DNA from: Pseudomonadota bacterium
GTDB lineage: Bacteria > Pseudomonadota > Gammaproteobacteria > Acidiferrobacterales > UBA6901
Assembly (NCBI GenBank): GCA_021778035.1
Contig: JAJYCY010000002.1
Location: 12,580-76,579 of the forward strand
Length of the DNA stretch: 64,000 nucleotides
Direction of reading: 5' to 3'
Of this stretch, positions 40,241 to 59,933 are shown piece by piece; the stretch's first letter is position 1, and each line of letters opens with the position of its first letter. A program made the position numbers and the translations under genes. The notes under the pieces were generated by a model that had not been told where the DNA came from, made no database searches, and was given only the letters and a program-made list of their open reading frames with translations.

Positions 40241-40302
40241 CCGCCTTGCCAGACCACAACCTTACCGCAACCGGTTGCAACCGGCCGCCATCGGCTGATT
40301 CC

Positions 40303-42000
40303 ATGAGCAGCGGCAAACCGGACAGACCTGCATCCTGGATCAAGGACCTGCTGATACTGGGCTTTGTCATCGGCCTGCTTTTCAGTTTCATGCTTGGCAG
40401 CCGCGCCTTCTGGGAGCCGGACGAGGGCCGTTACGTCGAGATACCGCGGGAGATGGTTGCCACCGGCAATTACGTCACGCCGCGCCTCGATGGCGTCATC
40501 TACCTGGAAAAACCGGCTCTGTTCTACTGGCTCGAAAGCGCATCAATCAAGCTTTTCGGACTCAACCAGTGGAGCATGCGCCTGTGGCCGGCCCTGCTCG
40601 GACTGTTCGGCTGTCTTGCCGTCTACATTGCGGGGCGCCGCCTGTACGGACGGCCAGCGGGCCTGATCGCGGCAATCGTGCTGGCGACGGATGTCCTTTA
40701 CTACGCGCTCGCACGCATCATCACGATCGACATGCCGATCACGGCACTGCTCAGCATATCGATGCTGGCATTCCTGCTTGGCACCCGGGAACCGCCCGGT
40801 CTGCGGCGTCGCGGGCTCATGTGGGCATTCTACGCGTTTGCCGCCCTGGCATTGCTGGCGAAAGGCCTGATTGGCATCGTATTTCCCGGAATGGTGATCG
40901 GCGCCTGGATCCTGGTGCGCAACGACTGGAAGCTGCTGCGCTCGATATACCTTCCGAGCGGCCTCGTGCTGCTGCTGGCCATCGCCGCCCCCTGGCATAT
41001 CCTGGTCGCGCGTGCCAATCCCACGTTTCTGCACTACTACTTCATCCGCCAGCATTTCGAGCGCTATCTCACGACCGTGGCCCACCGCTACGAACCGGTA
41101 TGGTTTTTCGTGCCGATCACCCTGGCGGGGCTGTACCCGTGGACGGCGTTCCTGTTCCAGGCACTGCGGCGCAGCTGGCCGGCGTCGTGGGCAGATCGTG
41201 AACAGGAACGCGATGCGCTGTATCTGGTGCTGTGGGCCGGTCTGATCCTCATCTTTTTCTCGTTGTCGGACTCGAAGCTCATCCCCTATATCCTTCCGAT
41301 CTTCCCCCCGCTGGCCATCCTCATCGGACGCTATCTGGCGCCAGCCTGGAACGGTTCTGAAGTACCAGGAATGCGGGCGGGACTGTGGGTGCTGCTCGCC
41401 GCCAGCATTGCGCTCGCGGTGCTGATGGTTGCAGCGCCTGCGCTGACTGCTGCCAATCCCAACATCGGCATCTACGTGGCCATGCTGAGCCGCTACCTCT
41501 ACGCCATGGCGGCAACACTGGCCGCGGGTAGCGTTGTGGCGCTCGTCTTCGCCTACCGCCGGCGTCCGCTGGCAGCACTCGTGACTACCGCCATCATGGG
41601 CGGTCTTTTCCTGAGCATACTGTCGTCGGGCCTGCCCCTCATGAACAGCAGGAACTCCGTAAAGGCCCTCGCCATGGACCTCAAACCGCTGCTCGGACCG
41701 CACACCGAGGTCATGAACTACCATGCCTACTACCAGGATCTGCCGGCATATATTGGCCGCACGGTGACGATCGTGGGATTCAAGGGCGAGCTTGCCTACG
41801 GGACGACCCTCGAAAACGACAGCGCCTGGATCATCAATGACCGCACCTTCTGGAAGCGCTGGCAAAGTCACCGGACCATCTATATGCTTACCACCCGCAC
41901 GCTCTACAGACAGCTCCGCGCCGGCCGGAAAGGCCGGTTCCGCCTGCTGGCGACGAGTGGCGACAACGTACTGCTTACCAACACCGGAAACCGAGGATGA
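40303..42000 (+). CDS. arnT: Undecaprenyl-phosphate-L-Ara4N:lipid A transferase-like glycosyltransferase (GT39/ArnT family)
   Basis: Multi-TM. Contains FWEPDEGRYVEIPREM, YLEKPALFYW and a C-terminal periplasmic domain. It heads an arn cluster. The start is taken at ATG 40303. Confidence 0.8.
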   Translation: MSSGKPDRPASWIKDLLILGFVIGLLFSFMLGSRAFWEPDEGRYVEIPREMVATGNYVTPRLDGVIYLEKPALFYWLESASIKLFGLNQWSMRLWPALLGLFGCLAVYIAGRRLYGRPAGLIAAIVLATDVLYYALARIITIDMPITALLSISMLAFLLGTREPPGLRRRGLMWAFYAFAALALLAKGLIGIVFPGMVIGAWILVRNDWKLLRSIYLPSGLVLLLAIAAPWHILVARANPTFLHYYFIRQHFERYLTTVAHRYEPVWFFVPITLAGLYPWTAFLFQALRRSWPASWADREQERDALYLVLWAGLILIFFSLSDSKLIPYILPIFPPLAILIGRYLAPAWNGSEVPGMRAGLWVLLAASIALAVLMVAAPALTAANPNIGIYVAMLSRYLYAMAATLAAGSVVALVFAYRRRPLAALVTTAIMGGLFLSILSSGLPLMNSRNSVKALAMDLKPLLGPHTEVMNYHAYYQDLPAYIGRTVTIVGFKGELAYGTTLENDSAWIINDRTFWKRWQSHRTIYMLTTRTLYRQLRAGRKGRFRLLATSGDNVLLTNTGNRG

Positions 42001-42362
42001 CCTATCTTCCGCTGATACTGCTGGGAGTGCTGCTGAATGCGGCAGCCCAGCTCCTGCTGAAGGAGGGCATGCGCCGCATCGGGCACTTTGCGTTCGCGTG
42101 GTCAAACGTGATCCCGGTAGGGATGCAGATCGCCTTCAGTCCTTTCGTGCTGGCCGGCCTGTTCAGCTATGTCGTGAGCGTCGTGGTCTGGATCCTGGTG
42201 CTCTCGCGCGTCCAGGTGAGCTTTGCCTATCCGATGCTCAGCGTCGGATACATCGTGACTGCCGTGGCCGGCTATTACCTGTTCCACGAGAGCCTTTCGC
42301 CTGCACGCATGGCGGGAATCCTGCTCATTGTCGGCGGCGTATTCCTCGTCACCCGCAGCTGA
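41997..42362 (+). CDS. ArnE/ArnF-like small EamA/SMR-type membrane protein (Ara4N-undecaprenyl phosphate flippase subunit)
   Basis: 121 aa, 4 TM. An ATGA overlap with arnT. It sits inside the arn cluster. Confidence 0.6.
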   Translation: MTYLPLILLGVLLNAAAQLLLKEGMRRIGHFAFAWSNVIPVGMQIAFSPFVLAGLFSYVVSVVVWILVLSRVQVSFAYPMLSVGYIVTAVAGYYLFHESLSPARMAGILLIVGGVFLVTRS

Positions 42363-42373
42363 GGTCGCGCTCA

Positions 42374-43531
42374 ATGACCGATGAGTTTCTGCCGTTTTCC
42401 CGCCCCTCCATCAGCCGCGAGGCCATTGACGAGGTGGTCGCCTGCCTGCAGTCCGGATGGATCACTACCGGACCGCGCGTAAAGAAATTTGAAGAGGCAC
42501 TCGCGGCATATCTCGGCGCGCCACGCGTCCTCGCCCTGTCGTCCGCCACCGCTGGACTGCACCTGGCACTGGCGGCGCTCGACCTCGAGCCCGGCGACGA
42601 GGTGATCACGACACCCATGACCTTCGCGGCAACGCTGAACACCATCGTGCTGGCCGGCGGGAAACCGGTGCTTGTTGATGTGGAGCCAGGCACGTACAAC
42701 ATGGATGTGCGCCAGCTGTCCGGCGCCGTCACCAGCCGTACGCGCGCCATCATGCCCGTGCACTTCGCCGGCATGCCGGTCGACATGGACCCCCTGTACG
42801 CGGTTGCCGCCAGCCATAGACTGCACGTAATCGAGGATGCGGCCCACGCAATCGGAACGGAGTACCGCGGGCGGCGCATCGGCGGCTTCGGCGATACCCA
42901 GGTTTTCAGTTTCCATCCGAACAAGAACATAACAACCGGCGAGGGTGGTGCGGTCACTACCCGCAATCCGGAACTGGCGGACCGCATTGCCCTGCTGCGC
43001 TTCCACGGCATGGACCGGGAGGCCTGGAACCGCTTCGGCAAGACCGGGAACCAGCATTACGAGATCGTGACGCCCGGATACAAATACAACATGATGGACA
43101 TGCAGGCGGCGCTCGGCCTGCACCAGCTTCCGGCGCTTGAATCGTTCATCCACCGCCGTACCGAGATTGCCCGGCGTTACCAGGAACAGCTCGCGGACTG
43201 GCCACAGTGGACGCTGCCGGCCACGCCTGACTACCCGCATCGCCACGCCTGGCACCTCTACACGCCGCTCATCAACCCGCAGGCAGCCGGGATGGACCGC
43301 GATGCCTTCATGCAGAAAATGAAGGAACGGAACATCGGTACCGGCCTCCACTACCGCGCGGTGCACCTCTATCCGTACTATCGCGACCGCTTCGGTTTCA
43401 GGCGCGGCGACTTCCCGAATGCCGAAAGCATTTCCGACAGGATCGTCAGTCTGCCGCTGTTTCCGGCGATGACCGATAGCGACCAGGAACGGGTGCTGGC
43501 GGCGATGTCAGGCCTGTTTCAGGGAACATAG
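42374..43531 (+). CDS. arnB: UDP-4-amino-4-deoxy-L-arabinose--oxoglutarate aminotransferase (DegT/DnrJ/EryC1 family)
   Basis: Starts MTDEFLPFSRPSISREAIDEVV, has SATAGLHLAL and FHPNKNITTGEGG (PLP Lys). The long upstream extension in the ORF track is discounted. Confidence 0.9.
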   Translation: MTDEFLPFSRPSISREAIDEVVACLQSGWITTGPRVKKFEEALAAYLGAPRVLALSSATAGLHLALAALDLEPGDEVITTPMTFAATLNTIVLAGGKPVLVDVEPGTYNMDVRQLSGAVTSRTRAIMPVHFAGMPVDMDPLYAVAASHRLHVIEDAAHAIGTEYRGRRIGGFGDTQVFSFHPNKNITTGEGGAVTTRNPELADRIALLRFHGMDREAWNRFGKTGNQHYEIVTPGYKYNMMDMQAALGLHQLPALESFIHRRTEIARRYQEQLADWPQWTLPATPDYPHRHAWHLYTPLINPQAAGMDRDAFMQKMKERNIGTGLHYRAVHLYPYYRDRFGFRRGDFPNAESISDRIVSLPLFPAMTDSDQERVLAAMSGLFQGT

Positions 43532-44509
43532 ATGATGACGCGCCCCTATCTGAGCGTGGTAGTGCCCGTGTATAACGAGGAAGCCAACCTCGAGGCCCTG
43601 TTTTTGCGCCTGACCACCGCGCTGGAACAGATCGGCAAGCCGTATGAGATGGTATTCACCAACGATGGCAGCCGTGACAGCTCGGGAATGCTGCTGGAAC
43701 AGTTCCACCGCCAGCGGCCCGACCAGGTGAGCGTCATCGATTTCAACGGAAATTTCGGCCAGCACATGGCGATCATGGCGGCATTTGAACGGGTGCGCGG
43801 AGACGTGGTCGTGACTCTCGACGCGGACCTGCAGAATCCGCCCGAGGAGATCCCCAAGCTGCTTGCGGCAATCGAGGCCGGCCATGATGTGGTGGGCGGG
43901 TACCGCAAGGACCGTCGCGACACGCTGTTCCGGCGTTTTGCCTCGCGGCTCATCAATTCGCTGCGGGCACGCATCACCCATATCCGCATGCGCGACCAGG
44001 GCTGCATGCTGCGTGCCTACCGGCGCGGGATCGTGGAAAACATCAATGCGAGCAACGAAACGTCGACGTTCATTCCGGCACTGGCATACAGTTTCGCGGC
44101 CAATCCCACTGAAGTCGAAGTGGAGCACCGCGCCCGCGCTGCCGGGAAATCCAAATACCGGCTGTATGACCTGGTGCGCCTGAACTTCGATCTGATGACC
44201 GGATTTTCCATGGTGCCGCTGCAGATGTTTACGATGTTCGGGATACTCATCTCCATCATGAGCGCACTGTTCGTGGTCTATCTGTTCATCCGGCGCATCG
44301 TAATCGGACCGGAAGTACAGGGCGTATTCACGCTGTTTGCCATCCTTTATTTCCTGGTGGGTGTCGGCATCATGGGTCTTGGCATCATCGGTGAGTACGT
44401 GGGGCGCATATACCAGGAAGTGCGGCGCAGGCCGCGTTTTGTCATCAGGCGGATCCTGTCTTCCGGATCCGGGCCGGAACTGGCGCAGGAGGCCAGCGGC
44501 AGTGACTAG
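43532..44509 (+). CDS. arnC: Undecaprenyl-phosphate 4-deoxy-4-formamido-L-arabinose transferase (GT2)
   Basis: Contains LSVVVPVYNEEANL, DADLQNPPEEIP and two C-terminal TM helices. Confidence 0.9.
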   Translation: MMTRPYLSVVVPVYNEEANLEALFLRLTTALEQIGKPYEMVFTNDGSRDSSGMLLEQFHRQRPDQVSVIDFNGNFGQHMAIMAAFERVRGDVVVTLDADLQNPPEEIPKLLAAIEAGHDVVGGYRKDRRDTLFRRFASRLINSLRARITHIRMRDQGCMLRAYRRGIVENINASNETSTFIPALAYSFAANPTEVEVEHRARAAGKSKYRLYDLVRLNFDLMTGFSMVPLQMFTMFGILISIMSALFVVYLFIRRIVIGPEVQGVFTLFAILYFLVGVGIMGLGIIGEYVGRIYQEVRRRPRFVIRRILSSGSGPELAQEASGSD

Positions 44510-45470
44510 GCCAGCGACGGTGGTTTTTGCCTACCATGACGTCGGCTACGAATGTCTTCAGGCACTGATCGGGAACGGGTCGAATGTTGTGGCGGTGTTC
44601 ACCCACGATGACGATCCCGCGGAAAAAATCTGGTTCAAGTCGGTATCAGCCCTGGCGCGCGAACATGGCATACCCGTGCATGCTCCTGCTTCGGTCAACA
44701 CGCCCGGCTGGATCAACCGCATTCGCGAGCTGCGGCCGCAGATCCTGTTTTCGTTCTACTACCGGAACCTGATCTGCCAGGAAATCCTCGATATTCCCGC
44801 GCTCGGGGCCTTCAATATGCATGGGTCCCTGCTTCCGCGCTACCGCGGGCGCGTGCCGGTTAACTGGGCCGTGCTGAACGGCGAAACGCACACCGGGGCC
44901 ACCTTGCACGTCATGGTGAAGCGCCCCGATGCCGGCGATATCGTGGACCAGGAAGAGGTGCTGATCGGACCTGCCGACACGGCCCTCCAGGTGTTCGGCA
45001 GGGTCACAGCCGCGGCGCGACAAGTCCTTGTGCGGCAGATCGACGCAATCGAGGCGGGCAGACCGCCCCGTCGCGTCCAGGACGAGGCGATGGCGAGCTA
45101 TTTCGGCGGGCGCCGTCCGGAGGATGGTCGCATCGACTGGACGCAGCCCGCACAGCGCATTTACAACCTGATCCGCGCGGTTACCCATCCTTATCCGGGG
45201 GCTTTCACCGAACTGGATGGCCGCCGCCTCTATCTCTGGCGGGCTGTGCCGCGGCTGGAGGGAACCGGTATTCCTGGTGAGGTGCTTTCGACCGAGCCAC
45301 TGATTGTGGCTACGGGCAGCGGATGTCTGGACGTCATCACGCTGCAGTGGCAGAACGGGGCGGAACAGGCGGCAGCGGACGGCCAGCACGGCCTGCGCCG
45401 GGGTTTGCGGCTTGGCGTGGCATTGGCTGCGCCCGGCCAGAGTGTTCAGATATTTTCAACGGAGACATGA
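44502..45470 (+). CDS. arnA: UDP-L-Ara4N formyltransferase (stand-alone ArnA N-terminal domain)
   Basis: GTG at 44502 overlaps the arnC stop. Contains [34 protein letters not shown] and HPYPGAF. Confidence 0.85.
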
Positions 45471-45471
45471 C

Positions 45472-46512
45472 ATGAGTCTTAAGGTTCTCATTCTCGGCGT
45501 CAACGGTTTCATCGGCAACAGCCTCACCCAGCATATTCTCGAAAAGAAGGACTGGGAGGTCTACGGAATGGACATGAGCGCCGACAAGCTCGGCGAATGC
45601 CTCGGAGACAAGCGTTTCCATTTTGTCGAAGGCGATATCACCATCAACCGCGAATGGATCGAGTATCACGTCAAGAAATGCGACGTGGTGCTACCCCTGG
45701 TTGCCATCGCAACCCCCGCCACATACGTGATCGATCCGCTGCGCGTATTCGAACTCGATTTCGAGGCCAATCTTCATATCGTGCGCATGTGCGTGCGCTA
45801 TGGCAAGCGCGTGCTGTTTCCGTCGACCTCGGAAGTCTATGGAATGAGTTCTGATACGGAATTCGACGAAGAAAACACCAACCTTGTGCTCGGACCCATC
45901 CACAAGCAGCGCTGGATCTATTCGTGTTCGAAGCAGCTCATGGACCGCGTGATTTTCGCCTACGGCGCCAAGGAAGGATTGCGGTTCACCTTATTCCGGC
46001 CGTTCAACTGGATCGGACCGAAACTCGATAATATTTTCGAACCCAAGGAAGGAAGCTCCCGGGTGCTGACGCAGTTCATCGGGAATATCCTGCGCGGCAA
46101 GGATATCCGGCTGGTCGATGGTGGCGAGCAGCGGCGCAGCTTCACCTATATCGATGACGGCGTTGATGCACTGCTGCGCATCATCGAGAACCGTGACGGA
46201 TGCGCCGACGGCCGTATCTTCAACATCGGTAACCCGGCAAACGACATGTCGATCCGCCAGCTGGCGGAAACGCTTGTGGCGCTCATCAAGACCTACCCGA
46301 AGTACGCCAAGCTCGCCGACGATGTCAAGCTGGTTGTTACGAGCTCGGGCGAGTACTACGGGAAGGGATACCAGGACATTCTCACGCGCGTACCATCGAT
46401 CCGGAATGCACAGAAACATCTCGGCTGGAGTCCGGTCACGGATCTGAAAACCGCGCTGCGCAAAACACTCGACTACCATCTCGGTCGTCCGACTCAGGAG
46501 CTTGAAAACTGA
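45472..46512 (+). CDS. arnA: UDP-glucuronate oxidative decarboxylase (stand-alone ArnA C-terminal domain, SDR)
   Basis: Contains [22 protein letters not shown] and [11 protein letters not shown] (YxxxK). Its ATG is 1 nt after the formyltransferase stop. Confidence 0.85.
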
Positions 46513-46523
46513 CAGACCTGCCC

Positions 46524-47432
46524 ATGTCTGCCGGCGTGCTTTCGATAAAGGTCGACGTCGACACCGACCGTGGAACGCGGATCGGGGTACCGGCACTGCT
46601 TGCGGTATTCCAGCAGCTGGGAATCAGCGCAACCTTCCTTTTTTCTCTCGGCCCCGACAACACGGGGCGTGCGATCAGGCGCGTGTTCCGTCCCGGCTTT
46701 TTCACGAAGGCCGCGCGCACCAATGTTGTAGCGATGTATGGAATCCGCACCCTGCTCAATGGCGTTCTGCTTCCGGGGCCTCATATCGGGCGGCGCAACG
46801 AGGCGGTCATGCGCAGTACGCGCGCACATGGCCACGAAGTCGGGATTCACTGCTACGACCACATCCGCTGGCAGGACGGGCTTGCCACGATGGAAGCGAC
46901 CGAGGTGGCAGAAGAACTCGGCAAGGCGCGTCATGAATTTTTCCGTATTTTCGGCGAACCCGCCGCCACCGCCGGGGCAGCAGGCTGGCAGGCCAACGCG
47001 CACAGCCTTGAGGCCTACGACAGTGCCGGCCTGCGTTACGCGAGCGACGCCCGCGGAACACATCCGTTTCTGCCGCGCGTGGGGCAGAAGGTCTTCAATA
47101 CGCTGCAGATTCCAACCACGCTGCCGACCCTGGACGAGCTGCTCGGCCGCCGGGGTTACTCCGAACTGCAGATCCTGGATCTGTACCTCGGGAAGCTGCG
47201 CACCGGCGGTCTGCATGTACTGACGGTGCATGCGGAGATCGAGGGAATGAGCAAGCTGCCCCTGTTCCGGGAGTTCCTGGCCCGCGCACTGGCCCTTCCT
47301 GTCCGCATACAGAGACTGTGCGATATCGCCGAGGAGCGGCTGCGCACACCCCAGGATATTCCAGTATGTGATCTGACGCAGGGTGAGGTGGACGGCCGCT
47401 CGGGCACGCTGGCGGTCCAGCGCTGCGCCTGA
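46524..47432 (+). CDS. arnD: 4-deoxy-4-formamido-L-arabinose-phosphoundecaprenol deformylase (polysaccharide deacetylase family)
   Basis: Contains LSIKVDVDTDRGT, FSLGPDN and HEVGIHCYDH (NodB-type). It is the last gene of the arn cluster. Confidence 0.85.
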   Translation: MSAGVLSIKVDVDTDRGTRIGVPALLAVFQQLGISATFLFSLGPDNTGRAIRRVFRPGFFTKAARTNVVAMYGIRTLLNGVLLPGPHIGRRNEAVMRSTRAHGHEVGIHCYDHIRWQDGLATMEATEVAEELGKARHEFFRIFGEPAATAGAAGWQANAHSLEAYDSAGLRYASDARGTHPFLPRVGQKVFNTLQIPTTLPTLDELLGRRGYSELQILDLYLGKLRTGGLHVLTVHAEIEGMSKLPLFREFLARALALPVRIQRLCDIAEERLRTPQDIPVCDLTQGEVDGRSGTLAVQRCA

Positions 47433-51776: not shown

Positions 51777-53330
51777 TCAGGATTTTCCGGTCCGGGTCGC
51801 TGGAATCAGCGCCGTGACCTTGCGCACCAGTTCGATATTCAGTCGCGACTGGGCCTGGAAGGTTCCGGAATAGGCCAGATCCTCCTGCCGCAGTTCATAG
51901 CAGTTCGACCCACCGATATCCATGAGGACGGCAGGAATGCCCGCCTCGTTGAACGCCACGTGCCGCTTGAGGTAAAAATTCTCGCAGCACATGCCCACGT
52001 AGGCGGCGGTACCCATGCCCCGCAGATCCGCGAGCGTCTGGCGCAGGTGCTCATAATTGTTGATCGATACCACCCGCATTCCACGTTCGCGCGCAAGCCG
52101 GTAGGCCTCGCCGACCTCGCACAGGCCGCACTCGGTGCAGCCGTCGCGATTGCGCCACTTGCACCACAGCGGCTTGGCGCAATAGGGAACCAGCATGACC
52201 GTGGCCTGTGCAAGGATATCGCCGAGCCCCTCGTCATGCCCGGGGCTGTGGATCATGAGCATGTTTGCCGCGGCGGTTTCAACGCCGAGCTCCGCCTGCT
52301 CGCGCCGGCGGTTGGCTGCCAGTGCGATTACATAGCCCAGATCCGCCTCGGTCGCCCCCACCATCGCCCAGCCGGTCTCCCGCAGGCACAGCGCCAGCTG
52401 CTCCTCGAGGTCTTCGACTGGCCGGCCGGCCAGCGCGCGTCCGATCCGGCGAAAAAGGTCCGGAGGAGCGAGCTGGATGCTGCCGGAGAGATACACGTCC
52501 GCAAAACGCGCGCCGTCGCCCTCCAGTGCCACGGCAGCATGGAGAACACCTCCGGGGGTGCGGTGAAATGCGCGGAACCGTTCGCCTGCCGCGGTGGCCG
52601 GCATGACGGCCGCGCAGGCGGCGGAATCCCGCTGCTCCGGCGGCGCCATCCCGGTGGCATGCCGGATATCGACGCCCAGCGCCGCGCCGAGCGCGCCGGC
52701 GATGCGTGCTCCGATCTCCTGCGCATCCGGCACCTGCTCCAGATGTTCGCGCATGCTGGTAAAGCGCCCACGCGCGGTACGCATGCCCTCGGCGGACAGC
52801 TTTTCCGTCGGCACGCGCAGCGCCCTGAGCATGGTCTCGACATCGACATCGATCAGCAGACTGCCCTGAAACAGGGTACGCTGCCCATCATCTGACACGA
52901 AGCCGCAGGCAATCTTGCGGCCATCGACTTCGATGTCATTGAACGCCTGGAATGACGCCGGCACGCCGAGATCGCGCACCGCTGCGGCGATCGCCTGGCA
53001 AAACCGCTCCAGCACCGCCGGCAACGTCTGTCCGGCAGCACGCGCTTCTGCAGAGGGCATTGCCAGAGTCCAGCACAACTGCTGCTCATCAAGATAGAGC
53101 GCACCGCCCCCCGTCAGTCTGCGTGCGATATCGATTCCGTGCTGATAGCAGTAGTCGAGGCGCGCGACATGCGCACAGTCCTCGTGCGCACCGACAATCA
53201 CGCTCGGCCGGAAGCGGTAAAAACGCAGGCTCGCACAGTCCACGCTCCCGGCCCAGGCCAGGCTGTCCAGATGGCAGTTGGCGGCACCCGGCCGGGTGCC
53301 GCTGTCCCACCAGGTCCAGCGCACGGCCAT
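51777..53330 (-). CDS. Fusion protein: lipoate/biotin protein ligase-like catalytic domain (LplA/LipB/BirA superfamily) + Cys-rich DUF116-like domain
   Basis: N-terminal half: RFYRFRPSVIVGAHED, ARRLTGGGALYLDEQQLCWTL and DIEVDGRKIACGF (a conserved Lys motif). C-terminal half: LVPYCAKPLWCKWRNRDGCTECGLCEVG...YVGMCCENFY...GGSNCYE. The ATG at 53330 overlaps the ubiV stop (TGATG). Confidence 0.7.
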   Translation of the reverse strand: MAVRWTWWDSGTRPGAANCHLDSLAWAGSVDCASLRFYRFRPSVIVGAHEDCAHVARLDYCYQHGIDIARRLTGGGALYLDEQQLCWTLAMPSAEARAAGQTLPAVLERFCQAIAAAVRDLGVPASFQAFNDIEVDGRKIACGFVSDDGQRTLFQGSLLIDVDVETMLRALRVPTEKLSAEGMRTARGRFTSMREHLEQVPDAQEIGARIAGALGAALGVDIRHATGMAPPEQRDSAACAAVMPATAAGERFRAFHRTPGGVLHAAVALEGDGARFADVYLSGSIQLAPPDLFRRIGRALAGRPVEDLEEQLALCLRETGWAMVGATEADLGYVIALAANRRREQAELGVETAAANMLMIHSPGHDEGLGDILAQATVMLVPYCAKPLWCKWRNRDGCTECGLCEVGEAYRLARERGMRVVSINNYEHLRQTLADLRGMGTAAYVGMCCENFYLKRHVAFNEAGIPAVLMDIGGSNCYELRQEDLAYSGTFQAQSRLNIELVRKVTALIPATRTGKS

Positions 53331-54229
53331 CACACGCCCGTATCGGTCAGCCAATCCATTCCCGATACTCCATGCCAGAAACCGTTACACGGATTAGCCG
53401 CCACGGACCCGGACAGCGCGCGGGCGGCATCCGCCGGATCCGCGCGTCCGTCAATCACCTGCCGGAACCAGCCGATTACCGCTTCCGTGCCCTGTGACTG
53501 CGGTGAAATGCGCAGCACATCCACTCCCAGTGCATGCAATGCCGGAAATTCCCCCAGCAGGTTCACCGTCCGGCCGGACTGGACCTGTATCCCGTTCAGC
53601 ACCAGAAACTGCTCGCCCTCGCGTGTTTCGAGTTCCATGCCGTCCGGATAATCGGCACAGCGGAACTCGCAGCTGTCCTTCGGGATGCCGTGGGCGCGGG
53701 CCGTGAAACAGCGCGCCGAGAAAGCCAGCGGCAGACGGCCAAATGCGAAAATTTCCGTCTCCATGCCATCCGGGCGTCCGGCCTGCAGCGCCGCCACTGC
53801 TTGGTGACCGAGCTCGAGCGGCGGCACCCAGCGACAGGCTCCGAGATCGGAAAAAAGACGCAGCGTCTCGCTGTTGTAGATATTGATATGCGGTCCGGCG
53901 ACAAAGCGCCCATGCCCGCCAAGCATGTTCACCGCGGCCAGATCATTGGCTTCAACCAGGTAGCGGCCATTTTCCGCGAAGTGCCGCATACGGCTGATTT
54001 CAGATGCCGCCTCGACCAGCACAAGCGTGGACAGCACCACCTCCTTGCCGGCAGCTGCCAGCCGGCCCGCAATAGCGAGCCAGTCCGCGGTGTTGAGGGC
54101 GCGGCGTTTGGCGCACACGGTCTCGCCGAGGTAGACGATATCCACCGGCTGTTCGGCGACGTGCGCGTAGAATTGCATGACCGAGTCCCGGTCCCAGAAA
54201 TACAGGATGGGTCCGAGTGAAAGTTTCAT
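53330..54229 (-). CDS. ubiV: O2-independent ubiquinone hydroxylation factor UbiV (peptidase U32 family, YhbV-like)
   Basis: MKLSLGPILYFWDRDSVMQFY...IVYLGETVCAKRR...LPLAFSARCFTARAH...FLVLNGIQ aligns along its length with E. coli YhbV. Confidence 0.85.
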   Translation of the reverse strand: MKLSLGPILYFWDRDSVMQFYAHVAEQPVDIVYLGETVCAKRRALNTADWLAIAGRLAAAGKEVVLSTLVLVEAASEISRMRHFAENGRYLVEANDLAAVNMLGGHGRFVAGPHINIYNSETLRLFSDLGACRWVPPLELGHQAVAALQAGRPDGMETEIFAFGRLPLAFSARCFTARAHGIPKDSCEFRCADYPDGMELETREGEQFLVLNGIQVQSGRTVNLLGEFPALHALGVDVLRISPQSQGTEAVIGWFRQVIDGRADPADAARALSGSVAANPCNGFWHGVSGMDWLTDTGV

Positions 54230-57256: not shown

Positions 57257-57595
57257 CTAGCCGGTACTCCATGCGCGCGGCCGGCGCATGCCTGCCACCT
57301 TGCAGGCCTGCTGCATGTACCCATAGGGGAAAAGCCGGTACAGGTGGTCACGGCCGGATCCTCTGCCATATTTGTCATTGAGGAATTTGATGACAAACCG
57401 TGCATCGGCCGCAATGTGATGCTGGACGAAGTAATCCCGCATGAAATTGAGCACTTCCCAGTGCTCCGGCTCGAGGGTAATGTTTTCCCTCCTTGCCAGC
57501 TCTTCGGCAACAACGTTATTCCAGTCCTCGGGATCCACCAGAAAACCTTCGTTATCTGTGACAAGACTGCTTGGCTGTAACTGCATGGCGGTCAT
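57257..57595 (-). CDS. DsrC/TusE-family protein lacking the penultimate (CysA) cysteine
   Basis: 112 aa. Contains TDNEGFLVDPEDW, EHWEVLNFMRDYF and LYRLFPYGYMQQACKVAGMRRPRAWSTG. Only the CysB-equivalent is present. Confidence 0.85.
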   Translation of the reverse strand: MTAMQLQPSSLVTDNEGFLVDPEDWNNVVAEELARRENITLEPEHWEVLNFMRDYFVQHHIAADARFVIKFLNDKYGRGSGRDHLYRLFPYGYMQQACKVAGMRRPRAWSTG

Positions 57596-57808: not shown

Positions 57809-58273
57809 ATGCGCCTGACCGTCTTTTCCGACTATAGCCTGCGGGTTCTGCTATATCTGGGGACCCACCGTGAAAATATATCTACGATCAATGAGATAGC
57901 GGAGACCTACGGCATCTCCCGGAATCATCTGATGAAGGTGGTTCATGCCCTGGGGCGACGCGGAATCATAGAAACGCTGCGCGGAAAGGGCGGGGGCATC
58001 CGCCTGCGGCTCGATCCCCACACAGTTAACCTGGGAACCGTGGTGCGCGCCACTGAGGCCGACACCGCGCTGGTCGAATGCTTCGACCCCGAGCACACCA
58101 GCTGTCCCATTGTGCCCGCATGCGCGCTGCGCGGAGTCCTTGCCGAGGCACGCGAGGCATTCTTCCGTACGCTTGACCGGACCACTCTGGCTGACCTGCT
58201 CGGCAACGAGCAGCACCTGCTTGCGCTGATGGTTACCCCGCCAACTTCCCGGATTTCCCGGAAATCAGCCTGA
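57809..58273 (+). CDS. nsrR: Rrf2-family transcriptional regulator, NsrR-like
   Basis: Starts MRLTVFSDYSLRVLLYLG, has the HTH ISRNHLMKVVHALGRRG and a three-Cys cluster ligand pattern (LVECFDPEHTSCPIVPACALR). Confidence 0.85.
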   Translation: MRLTVFSDYSLRVLLYLGTHRENISTINEIAETYGISRNHLMKVVHALGRRGIIETLRGKGGGIRLRLDPHTVNLGTVVRATEADTALVECFDPEHTSCPIVPACALRGVLAEAREAFFRTLDRTTLADLLGNEQHLLALMVTPPTSRISRKSA

Positions 58274-58307: not shown

Positions 58308-58544
58308 TCAGCGGACGGCCGGCCCCTTCCTGCGGACAATCTGACTGGCTCTGAACACAGAGCCGAACGGAATGCTCCCGATGTGAACAAGACGGGTAAA
58401 CGGAAAAATCAGGAATACGGTCATCCCGAAAAACAGGTGTATCTTGAATAGGGTGCCAACCCCGGCAATCGCTTCAGAGTCGGGCTGGAAAGTCACGATG
58501 CTGCGCGCCCAGGATGCGAGCGCCCGCGTCACCTTCGGATCCCC
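58308..58544 (-). pseudogene. narI: 3' remnant of respiratory nitrate reductase gamma subunit narI (last ~75 codons)
   Basis: [64 protein letters not shown] aligns with the E. coli NarI C-terminus (GWAQSVVTF...[42 protein letters not shown]), including both distal heme His residues. No NarI-like sequence lies upstream. Confidence 0.75.
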
Positions 58545-58547
58545 GGC

Positions 58548-58676
58548 GCGCGCGAGCTGGCAATCAGCGAAGGCACGGTGAAAGTCCACGTCAAGCATCT
58601 GCTGAAGAAACTCGGCCTGCGTTCACGCGTTGAGGCGGCGGTCTGGGCCGCGGTACGGACACCCGGCCAGACCTGA
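58548..58676 (+). pseudogene. narL: 3' remnant of a NarL/LuxR-type response regulator (last ~42 codons of the HTH domain)
   Basis: [36 protein letters not shown]... matches the NarL C-terminus ([28 protein letters not shown]). No receiver domain or start codon lies upstream. It abuts the narI remnant. Confidence 0.7.
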
Positions 58677-58686
58677 AACCGCGGGG

Positions 58687-59151
58687 TCAGCGGTCGCCAG
58701 GCTCCGTCTTGCGGTCGGAGAGCACCCGGTCGATCGCTGAACCCATTTCCCAGAGCCAGCCCCGCGCCTGATGCCAGAGCACATTGGGTGAATGGCCGCC
58801 GCGGGTGGCGCGCGTACCGGGCACGGCAGTGGCTACGACCGCAATCAGGCCCTTCTGAAAAGCGGGATGATCCGGCTTGAACCCTTCTTCTATCCGGGCA
58901 TTGAAGCCGATATCGAGCAGAAATACGGACTCGATCTTGCTGAGCAGAAGCCGCTGCCAGGTGACACCGTCACCTGCCGGATTTCCGGGACCCCGGGTCT
59001 GGAAACAGCCTACGACCACGGAGCCCTCCGCGTCCGTATAGATCACATGTGGCTCAACCACACGTATGTGCTGCTGACTGTCATAACGCAGCACAGCACA
59101 GCGTCTGTCCTTGATGGACAGCCTGAGGCGTTTCAGGATATCGGGAGTCAT
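58687..59151 (-). CDS. Hypothetical protein, WYL-domain-like
   Basis: 154 aa from the internal ATG. RCAVLRYDSQQHIRVVEPHVIYTDAEGSVVVGCFQ...WQRLLLSKIESVFLLDIGF resembles the WYL beta-barrel pattern. Weak call. Confidence 0.4.
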   Translation of the reverse strand: MTPDILKRLRLSIKDRRCAVLRYDSQQHIRVVEPHVIYTDAEGSVVVGCFQTRGPGNPAGDGVTWQRLLLSKIESVFLLDIGFNARIEEGFKPDHPAFQKGLIAVVATAVPGTRATRGGHSPNVLWHQARGWLWEMGSAIDRVLSDRKTEPGDR

Positions 59152-59591
59152 GGTGCGTTTACCCGGGAGGGATCCCTGTTCGAGAACATGACTGAGTATA
59201 GGTGCCGGACGCCCGCGGCAGATCCGGCCAGCCTGGGGGCGCGACATTCGTCCGGAAAATCCAGACAAGCGGACAGGCCTGGCGGGGCAACCCGGCAGCC
59301 AGCAATGCCACTTCTGGCATGGAGATTGCGTGACAGGCCGGGCACCCCTTCCGGGCACGGTTTCGCTGGCCTGTGACGCATGCTGTCTGGAAACCGGTTT
59401 GTGCCGCAGACCCGTCGGCGCTATATCCGATTACGATGCATCGACCTGATCTGCCTATCCCTTTTGGGTAGTAATTGGACATACCGGAATCCCTGTACCC
59501 TGAAAAAAATTTCAGGGTTGGCCGGGCCCGTCGGGAGGTGGTCCGCCGGCGGGTCCGGCCAGCCCGCGGACTCATGACGCAAGGTGCCCGA

Positions 59592-59933
59592 ATGACACTT
59601 GAGGTAAACGGGAAGATTCTGGAAACTGACGAAGAGGGGTTTTTGCTCGATCCCTCTGTCTGGGACCGCGTGATTGCCGAGCACATTGCGCGCGGCGAGG
59701 CGCTTGAGATGACTGGTCAGCGATGGGAGGTTGTCGATTTTGTTCGCGGCTACTACGAACAGCACCATGCCGTACCTGAAGCCAGGGTACTGCTGAAGGC
59801 GCTGGGCGAAAAAATGGGCAAGGACAAGGCAACCCGCAAGTACCTGTACCAGCTTTTTCCCTATGGTTACGGACAGCAGGCATGCAAGATCGCCGGCATG
59901 ACCAAGCCCAGGAAGCTGATGCTCGATGTATGA
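59592..59933 (+). CDS. DsrC/TusE-family protein lacking the penultimate (CysA) cysteine (second paralogue)
   Basis: The ATG follows AAGGTG. Contains TDEEGFLLDPSVW, QRWEVVDFVRGYY and LYQLFPYGYGQQACKIAGMTKPRKLMLDV. 113 aa. Confidence 0.85.
   Translation: MTLEVNGKILETDEEGFLLDPSVWDRVIAEHIARGEALEMTGQRWEVVDFVRGYYEQHHAVPEARVLLKALGEKMGKDKATRKYLYQLFPYGYGQQACKIAGMTKPRKLMLDV

Follow-up and report, generated by a model that had tools for sequence, protein, structure and literature searches.

The 369-bp stretch at 58308-58676 of the window (the whole 64-kb stretch of DNA that was analysed) is very probably the scar of a deletion that took the core of a respiratory nitrate-reductase (nar) locus. It holds the 3' ends of narI and narL, placed back to back between two intact genes, as follows.

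57809-58273, plus strand: nsrR, Rrf2-family NO-sensing repressor; intact left flank; a 34-bp spacer separates it from the convergent narI stump.
58308-58553, minus strand: narI 3' stump; NarI residues 151-231 and the native stop codon (58308-58310); pseudogene fragment.
58308-58598, minus strand: chimeric 96-aa ORF; its ATG is on the antisense strand of the narL stump, from where the ORF reads into the frame of the narI stump.
58548-58554, no strand: deletion junction; single remaining copy of the 7-bp direct repeat GCGCGCG.
58548-58676, plus strand: narL 3' stump; NarL residues 177-218 (42 codons) and stop codon; pseudogene fragment.
58687-59151, minus strand: down154, conserved hypothetical protein of 154 aa; intact right flank; a 10-bp spacer separates it from the convergent narL stump.

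Homology of the first stump to the NarI family was evident from two profiles and two individual proteins. The minus-strand translation of 58311-58598 matched PF02665 (Nitrate_red_gam) over positions 150-217 of 217 (E = 2.5e-21, 76.7 bits), and the stump matched positions 157-224 of 225 in TIGR00351 (narI) as well as residues 157-223 of E. coli NarI (E = 4.6e-15). Being partial, the match to TIGR00351 scored 72.2 bits, short of the cut-off of 105.55. When residues 151-231 of the intact NarI of a relative (L005) were aligned with the window from 58553 down to 58311, 69% of the positions were identical and no gaps, stops, or frameshifts were found. The stump spans the region of the last transmembrane helix and the C-terminal tail. 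A full-length NarI has approximately 225-231 aa, five transmembrane helices, and four haem-ligand histidines, and of these only residues 151-231 are present here; judged by what it encodes, the stump is a fragment and would not act as a functional member of the NarI family.

For the second stump, the plus-strand translation of 58500-58673 matched GerE over positions 24-57 of 57 (E = 4.7e-11). The top NCBIfam model was NarL (NF007935, positions 177-211 of 216, E = 4e-16), better by nine orders of magnitude than the runner-up models NarP (2.8e-7) and CsgD (3.9e-7), and the helix-turn-helix (HTH) is closest to that of NarL among response regulators. Residues 176-209 of E. coli NarL were matched directly, residues 177-210 of the intact 218-aa NarL of another relative (L177) are 91% identical to the stump, and its C-terminal end falls at the same point as in intact NarL. 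The recognition-helix end of the LuxR/GerE HTH is kept; the receiver domain with its phospho-acceptor Asp and the first helices of the four-helix HTH are gone, and the score reaches 58.8 bits against a cut-off of 250 for NF007935. This stump is therefore homologous to NarL but, as far as its domains can be read, would lack those that define a functional member.

A previous sequence-only reading had already described 3' remnants of both genes. Its assignment to narI on the minus strand agrees with the matches to PF02665, TIGR00351, and E. coli NarI, although the remnant comprises 81 codons from 58553 instead of the approximately 75 that were proposed. The approximately 42 codons of narL on the plus strand at 58548-58676 are borne out by the matches to GerE, NF007935, and E. 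coli NarL. The similarity of the two fragments to NarI and NarL is significant and restricted to C-terminal profile positions, and the 5' parts are missing from both as described; the two homologies do not simply meet within a few bases, as had been thought, but overlap in the 7-bp GCGCGCG.

Both flanking genes are intact. The product of nsrR matched Rrf2 (E = 2.6e-36) with NsrR (NF008240, E = 5e-37) as its top model, and is 100% identical at the amino acid level in another assembly (L002). No Pfam or NCBIfam match was found for down154, whose homologues in a protein search came only from Acidiferrobacterales-type metagenome-assembled genomes (MAGs); it adjoins an intact narL in L177, L178, L179, and L180. 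Two DsrC/TusE-like paralogues (57257-57595, minus strand, and 59475-59933, plus strand) bracket the segment from nsrR through the scar to down154, an arrangement which is kept in relatives; an exact look-up of the upstream DsrC-like protein returned one 1.3-kb contig only.

Relatives were collected by a scan of genome collections with NsrR and by protein searches with down154 and the NarL of a relative, and the clade thus defined consists of acid-mine-type MAGs labelled Acidiferrobacterales at NCBI. L005, whose NsrR is 77-78% identical, has intact narI (231 aa), narJ (181 aa), and narH (514 aa) directly after nsrR, and then the C-terminal part of narG; all lie on the strand opposite nsrR, as had been predicted. 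L177, L178, and partly L180 carry narI-narJ-narH-narG (1258 aa)-narK (474 aa, MFS) on the minus strand, followed by narX (629 aa) and narL (218 aa) on the plus strand and then down154. Taken together, these genomes place an intact, collinear nar locus between the same two flanks, where the sequence-only reading had suggested that one should be sought, and the layout from which it had argued (narI-J-H-G-K in one direction and narX-L in the other) is seen at the very same site in L177. The divergent arrangement of narIJHGK and narXL is the only one in which a single deletion leaves two 3' ends back to back; elsewhere, narXL is found in divergent as well as in co-directional layouts, as revealed by a metagenome scan with the NarH of L005. 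That scan detected only relatives of at most 77% identity from other lineages, none of which had nsrR or down154 as a neighbour, and a protein search with a 73-aa query from the narI stump returned truncated copies and short fragments only, with no full-length close relative. A literature search on nar in Acidiferrobacterales gave nothing specific to this locus; this deletion event and the series of states in the clade were not found in the searchable literature, and mechanistically they are not new.

Comparison with these relatives also places the breakpoints. In the window, narI homology extends to 58553 and narL homology opens at 58548, such that the bases GCGCGC are common to both and are followed by a G at 58554; the blastn homology between L177 and the window opens exactly at the junction (position 10529 of L177 corresponds to window position 58548). 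In the genes of the relatives, GCGCGCG corresponds to codons A151-R152 of narI (read from the opposite strand) and to codons A177-R178 of narL. The narI side in L005 reads CCGGCGCGCGCGtgcg and, across the breakpoint, GGATCTCCGGCGCGCGCG followed by TGCG; the narL side in L004, L177, and L180 reads cattGCGCGCGA, with CTCATT before the breakpoint and GCGCGCGA after it. One copy is left in the window and no filler DNA was found at the junction. In simulations with random breakpoints 10,763 bp apart in this window, microhomology of at least 7 bp arose by chance with P = 1.6e-4 and of at least 6 bp with P = 1.4e-3. Considering that GCGCGCG is present at both parental breakpoints in the relatives, we infer that the scar was probably made by microhomology-mediated illegitimate recombination in an ancestor that would have had the repeat at both sites, the parental sequences being those of relatives at only 69-91% identity and, on the narI side, of one genome (L005). 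The ancestral microhomology may have comprised 6, 7, or more bp. Deletion by an insertion sequence (IS) was ruled out by a repeat and IS search around the scar, which found no IS element or long repeat and gave short chance repeats only.

The following course of events may be proposed. The ancestor would have had, in plus-strand order, nsrR (+), narI-narJ-narH-narG-narK (-), narX-narL (+), and the 154-aa gene (-). The GCGCGCG repeats in narI (codons 151-152) and narL (codons 177-178) would have been joined by illegitimate recombination, either through slippage or through end-joining after a break, whereby one repeat copy stayed and approximately 10.76 kb between the repeats dropped out. This lost segment, whose size of 10,763 bp was obtained by combining L005 with L177 (94.8% identity in their overlap) and not from one contig spanning nsrR to down154, contained narI codons 1-150, narJ, narH, narG, narK, narX, and narL codons 1-176. 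Only the 81 terminal codons of narI and the 42 terminal codons of narL would thereby have been left, without promoters and 5' parts, probably no longer functional and decaying neutrally.

The same site has been altered in several other members of the clade. In L004 (10690-12102; identical in L169, L170, and L171 from other assemblies), we found a nar scar different from that of the window, consisting of a 19-codon narI tail, narH codons 162-433 with one frameshift, and a back-to-back narL from approximately codon 23-50, which is 5'-truncated and frameshifted. Here an 8.3-kb deletion joins narH codon 162 to narL codon ~50 and a separate 1.4-kb deletion joins narH codon 433 to narI codon 213. 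L004 is a close sister of the intact L005 and L177 (NsrR 95%, radical-SAM protein 98%, 5% concatenated protein distance), and the window is much more distant from it than those two are. Narrowing the comparison to narI, codons 151-212 are kept in the window but missing in L004. Since L004 is sister to genomes with an intact locus and the window holds these extra narI codons, the window and L004 must have lost nar independently, and derivation of the window scar from an L004-type scar was rejected on the same grounds.

L006 (10605-11626) displays a third, heavily degraded pattern with narJ residues 12-99 (36% identity), narH residues 488-514, and narL residues 1-163 at 41-54% identity, which looks like an older loss. 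No recognisable nar remnants were detected between nsrR and down154 in L167 and L007, and in L173 and L174 nsrR and the DsrC-like gene are also absent. In L175 (10460-11610; JGI Ga0168317_1000010), all that stands between down154 and bioB is the C-terminal end of Fnr (residues 236-287, 75% identity), the whole anaerobic block of approximately 21 kb (nar, nsrR, the DsrC-like gene, the radical-SAM genes, ubiU/V/T, hemN, and most of fnr) having been deleted. L172 lies outside the main group in a rough neighbour-joining tree, yet its narL adjoins down154 at the contig end, implying that nar at this site is ancestral to the group. At least five or six lineages (the window, L004, L006, L167 and/or L007, L173, and L175) have different nar deletions, and the occurrence of different deletions in sister lineages indicates that nar loss is recurrent. 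At strain level, the MAGs L164 (10466-10596) and L165 (10466-10577) encode an identical down154 protein and diverge completely 8 bp past its stop codon, and the contig of L166 ends exactly at that point after down154, which suggests structural polymorphism among strains at the boundary where nar sits in relatives.

These patterns bear on whether the window scar arose in one step. It is possible, if not the likelier course, that the locus was eroded stepwise, i.e., that an earlier small deletion or frameshift was followed by the deletion at the GCGCGCG repeats, which swept out the leftovers, so that the junction is only the last step. An intermediate of this kind is seen in the sister lineage L004 (also L169-L171), with its two deletions and narH frameshift, L006 shows a third and more decayed pattern, and an earlier inactivating mutation or smaller deletion would be invisible today if it lay within the lost segment. 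However, nothing in the window needs more than one event, and the L004 deletions themselves were not a precursor, given the narI codons kept in the window and the grouping of L004 with L005 and L177. A single deletion event remains the most economical account of the window scar. As to the earlier claim of a single deletion, the deletion is upheld; that it was single is probable at most, as the junction records the last event only.

The scar is not confined to the window. We detected an identical junction in L002 (ERZ27236853; a contig of 35 kb that shares 14.3 kb with the window at 99.48% identity), in L003 (ERZ27233564), and in the P0001 cluster (three contigs), which are further assemblies from different samples. 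Comparison of these strains shows how the stumps have evolved. Of the 74 differences between L002 and the window, 12 fall within the 240 bp of the narI stump (Fisher p = 3e-9). L003 differs from the window by 6.2% in the narI stump and 4.1% in the narL stump, compared with 0.9% in the adjoining end of nsrR and 0% in the end of down154 (Fisher p = 8.5e-4). The stumps have therefore diverged 5-10 times as much as the flanking genes, and disabling changes have been tolerated: radical replacements (L>P, L>R, and R>C) are found in the narI stump of L002, and in L003 the narI stop codon is gone and the ORF is lengthened to 121 aa. The faster divergence together with the loss of the stop codon in one strain indicates that the stumps are decaying pseudogene fragments. 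The sequence-only reading had called the loss recent. No frameshift or stop has yet appeared in the 123 surviving codons of the window, and in this respect the description is apt; however, the stumps of strains sharing the scar differ by 4-6% and the scar is older than the split between the sampled strains, so that "recent" holds only as the absence of disabling indels so far.

The 96-aa ORF across the junction has been called as a protein with PF02665 in public catalogues (P0001 and P0003 at 96 aa; P0002 at 121 aa through stop loss). It is highly unlikely that this ORF encodes a new functional small membrane protein, in which the last NarI helix would stand behind a novel N-terminus. It is open in the window, L002, and P0001, and both conserved histidines (haem ligands) of the C-terminal NarI helix are retained, but its substitution rate of 5-10 times that of the flanking genes, the L>P, L>R, and R>C replacements in L002, the Gly that replaces the conserved Trp after the second His in the window, the lost stop codon in L003, and the lack of a promoter-like site upstream on the minus strand in a promoter scan all argue against a function. 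The junction ORF is accidental, which would make it a by-product of the reading frames brought together by the deletion. Because it carries a NarI Pfam match, marker-based metabolic profiling could wrongly score "narI present" in such genomes; the correct annotation is that nar is absent at this locus.

The same assemblies make it extremely improbable that the junction is an assembly artefact, with a contig collapsed or mis-joined over the nar locus. All of the closest matches to the window come from MAGs or metagenome contigs, and breaks in the contigs of relatives are frequent near the scar site, but the junction recurs in at least three other independent assemblies, each with point differences of its own, which excludes misassembly as its source, and a 7-bp repeat is too short to make an assembler collapse 10.8 kb. 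That nar was never complete here, owing to partial horizontal transfer or because the intact loci in relatives are later insertions, is scarcely conceivable, since, variable as the presence of the anaerobic gene block is in this clade, an insertion in relatives cannot account for 5'-truncated gene ends at an "empty" site, both stumps are collinear with the intact locus in the correct orientation, remnants with other breakpoints exist in L004, L006, and L172, and the intact state nests among decayed ones.

Accepting a deletion scar, we considered whether the recurrent loss of nar in this acid-mine Acidiferrobacterales clade was selected rather than a matter of random decay, a view that we regard as rather doubtful at present. 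Besides the different deletions described above, some lineages have further deleted the whole fnr-hemN-ubiTUV-nsrR anaerobic block. Selected loss could plausibly be driven by the harm that nitrate reduction would do at low pH when no downstream step removes nitrite, as nitrite is proposed to become nitrous acid and NO under such conditions; this toxicity would explain both the repeated independent deletions and the retention of the NO sensor gene nsrR. If it were true, the site could serve as a naturally replicated test of what nitrate respiration costs an acidophile.

The remainder of the window gives the physiological context. To the left of nsrR, UbiU, UbiV, UbiT, HemN, and Fnr all score above the NCBIfam curated cut-offs, and a DsrC-like gene and two radical-SAM genes stand between nsrR and ubiU. 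With NsrR as the best Rrf2 model for the repressor, the retention of nsrR, fnr, hemN, and the anaerobic ubiquinone genes next to the scar, as stated in the sequence-only reading, is confirmed. A promoter and terminator scan placed a promoter-like site upstream of nsrR and was otherwise uninformative. When proteins of relatives were used as tblastn queries, no second copy of NarG, NarH, NarJ, NarK, or NarX was found within the 64-kb window, and no match to nitrogen-oxide reductase families was found among the approximately 45 window ORFs scanned against Pfam and NCBIfam. The lineage has kept Fnr, HemN, UbiT/U/V, and NsrR and lost the adjoining nitrate reductase, and fewer anaerobic electron acceptors are to be expected. 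The earlier claim that respiratory nitrate reduction was lost goes further than these 64 kb allow for the organism as a whole, whose genome may have a second nar or a nap locus elsewhere. The remaining genes have housekeeping functions (secretion ATPase, gpsA, iPGM, ubiB/ubiE, pst, ppk/ppx, hemB, adk, pfk, H+-PPase, an arn cluster, and bioB).

Two further observations concern these neighbouring regions. Between ubiV and ubiT, a gene at 51777-53354 (minus strand) encodes a 525-aa protein with a lipoate-protein-ligase-like (LplA-like) catalytic domain and DUF116; it is kept in all relatives that retain the ubiUVT block and scores below every NCBIfam cut-off. At 40246-47429 (plus strand), a complete arn-type cluster for aminoarabinose modification of lipid A adjoins bioB, comprising genes for an ArnT-like protein, an ArnB-like aminotransferase, an ArnC-like GT2, an ArnA-like formyltransferase and epimerase, and an ArnD-like deacetylase; arn-type genes also border the deletion in L175.

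The nar scar is an ordinary, well-resolved gene loss in an acid-mine bacterium, and a deletion scar with pseudogene remnants is a well-known type of feature which will not surprise a specialist. At this one site, the states seen in the clade range from intact through half-eroded and scar only to clean; this well-resolved series arose through independent deletions and may be used for examining how and why communities in acid mines shed respiratory modules.

In the E. coli/Pseudomonas-type locus, narXL is divergent from narK-narGHJI, the operon of respiratory nitrate reductase A. L177 matches it in gene content and in divergent layout, whereas the window retains only 81 and 42 terminal codons, the catalytic subunit, chaperone, transporter, sensor, and receiver being gone; the site used in this clade, flanked by nsrR and a lineage-specific 154-aa gene and next to fnr-hemN-ubiTUV, is also different. 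Deletions between short direct repeats, of which lacI in E. coli is the classic case, arise by RecA-independent illegitimate recombination or replication slippage. The window resembles them in that one 7-bp copy is left, with no filler, no mobile element, and collinear flanks, but the spacing of its repeats, approximately 10.8 kb, would be large for slippage, the repeated bases form an alternating GC tract, and the parental state is inferred from relatives. The stumps are also similar to the pseudogenes of reductive evolution, being truncated, promoterless, evolving at an approximately intergenic rate, and without the stop codon in one strain; unlike in reductive evolution, no sign of genome-wide reduction was seen, and the loss is a local one, repeated at a single locus in several lineages.
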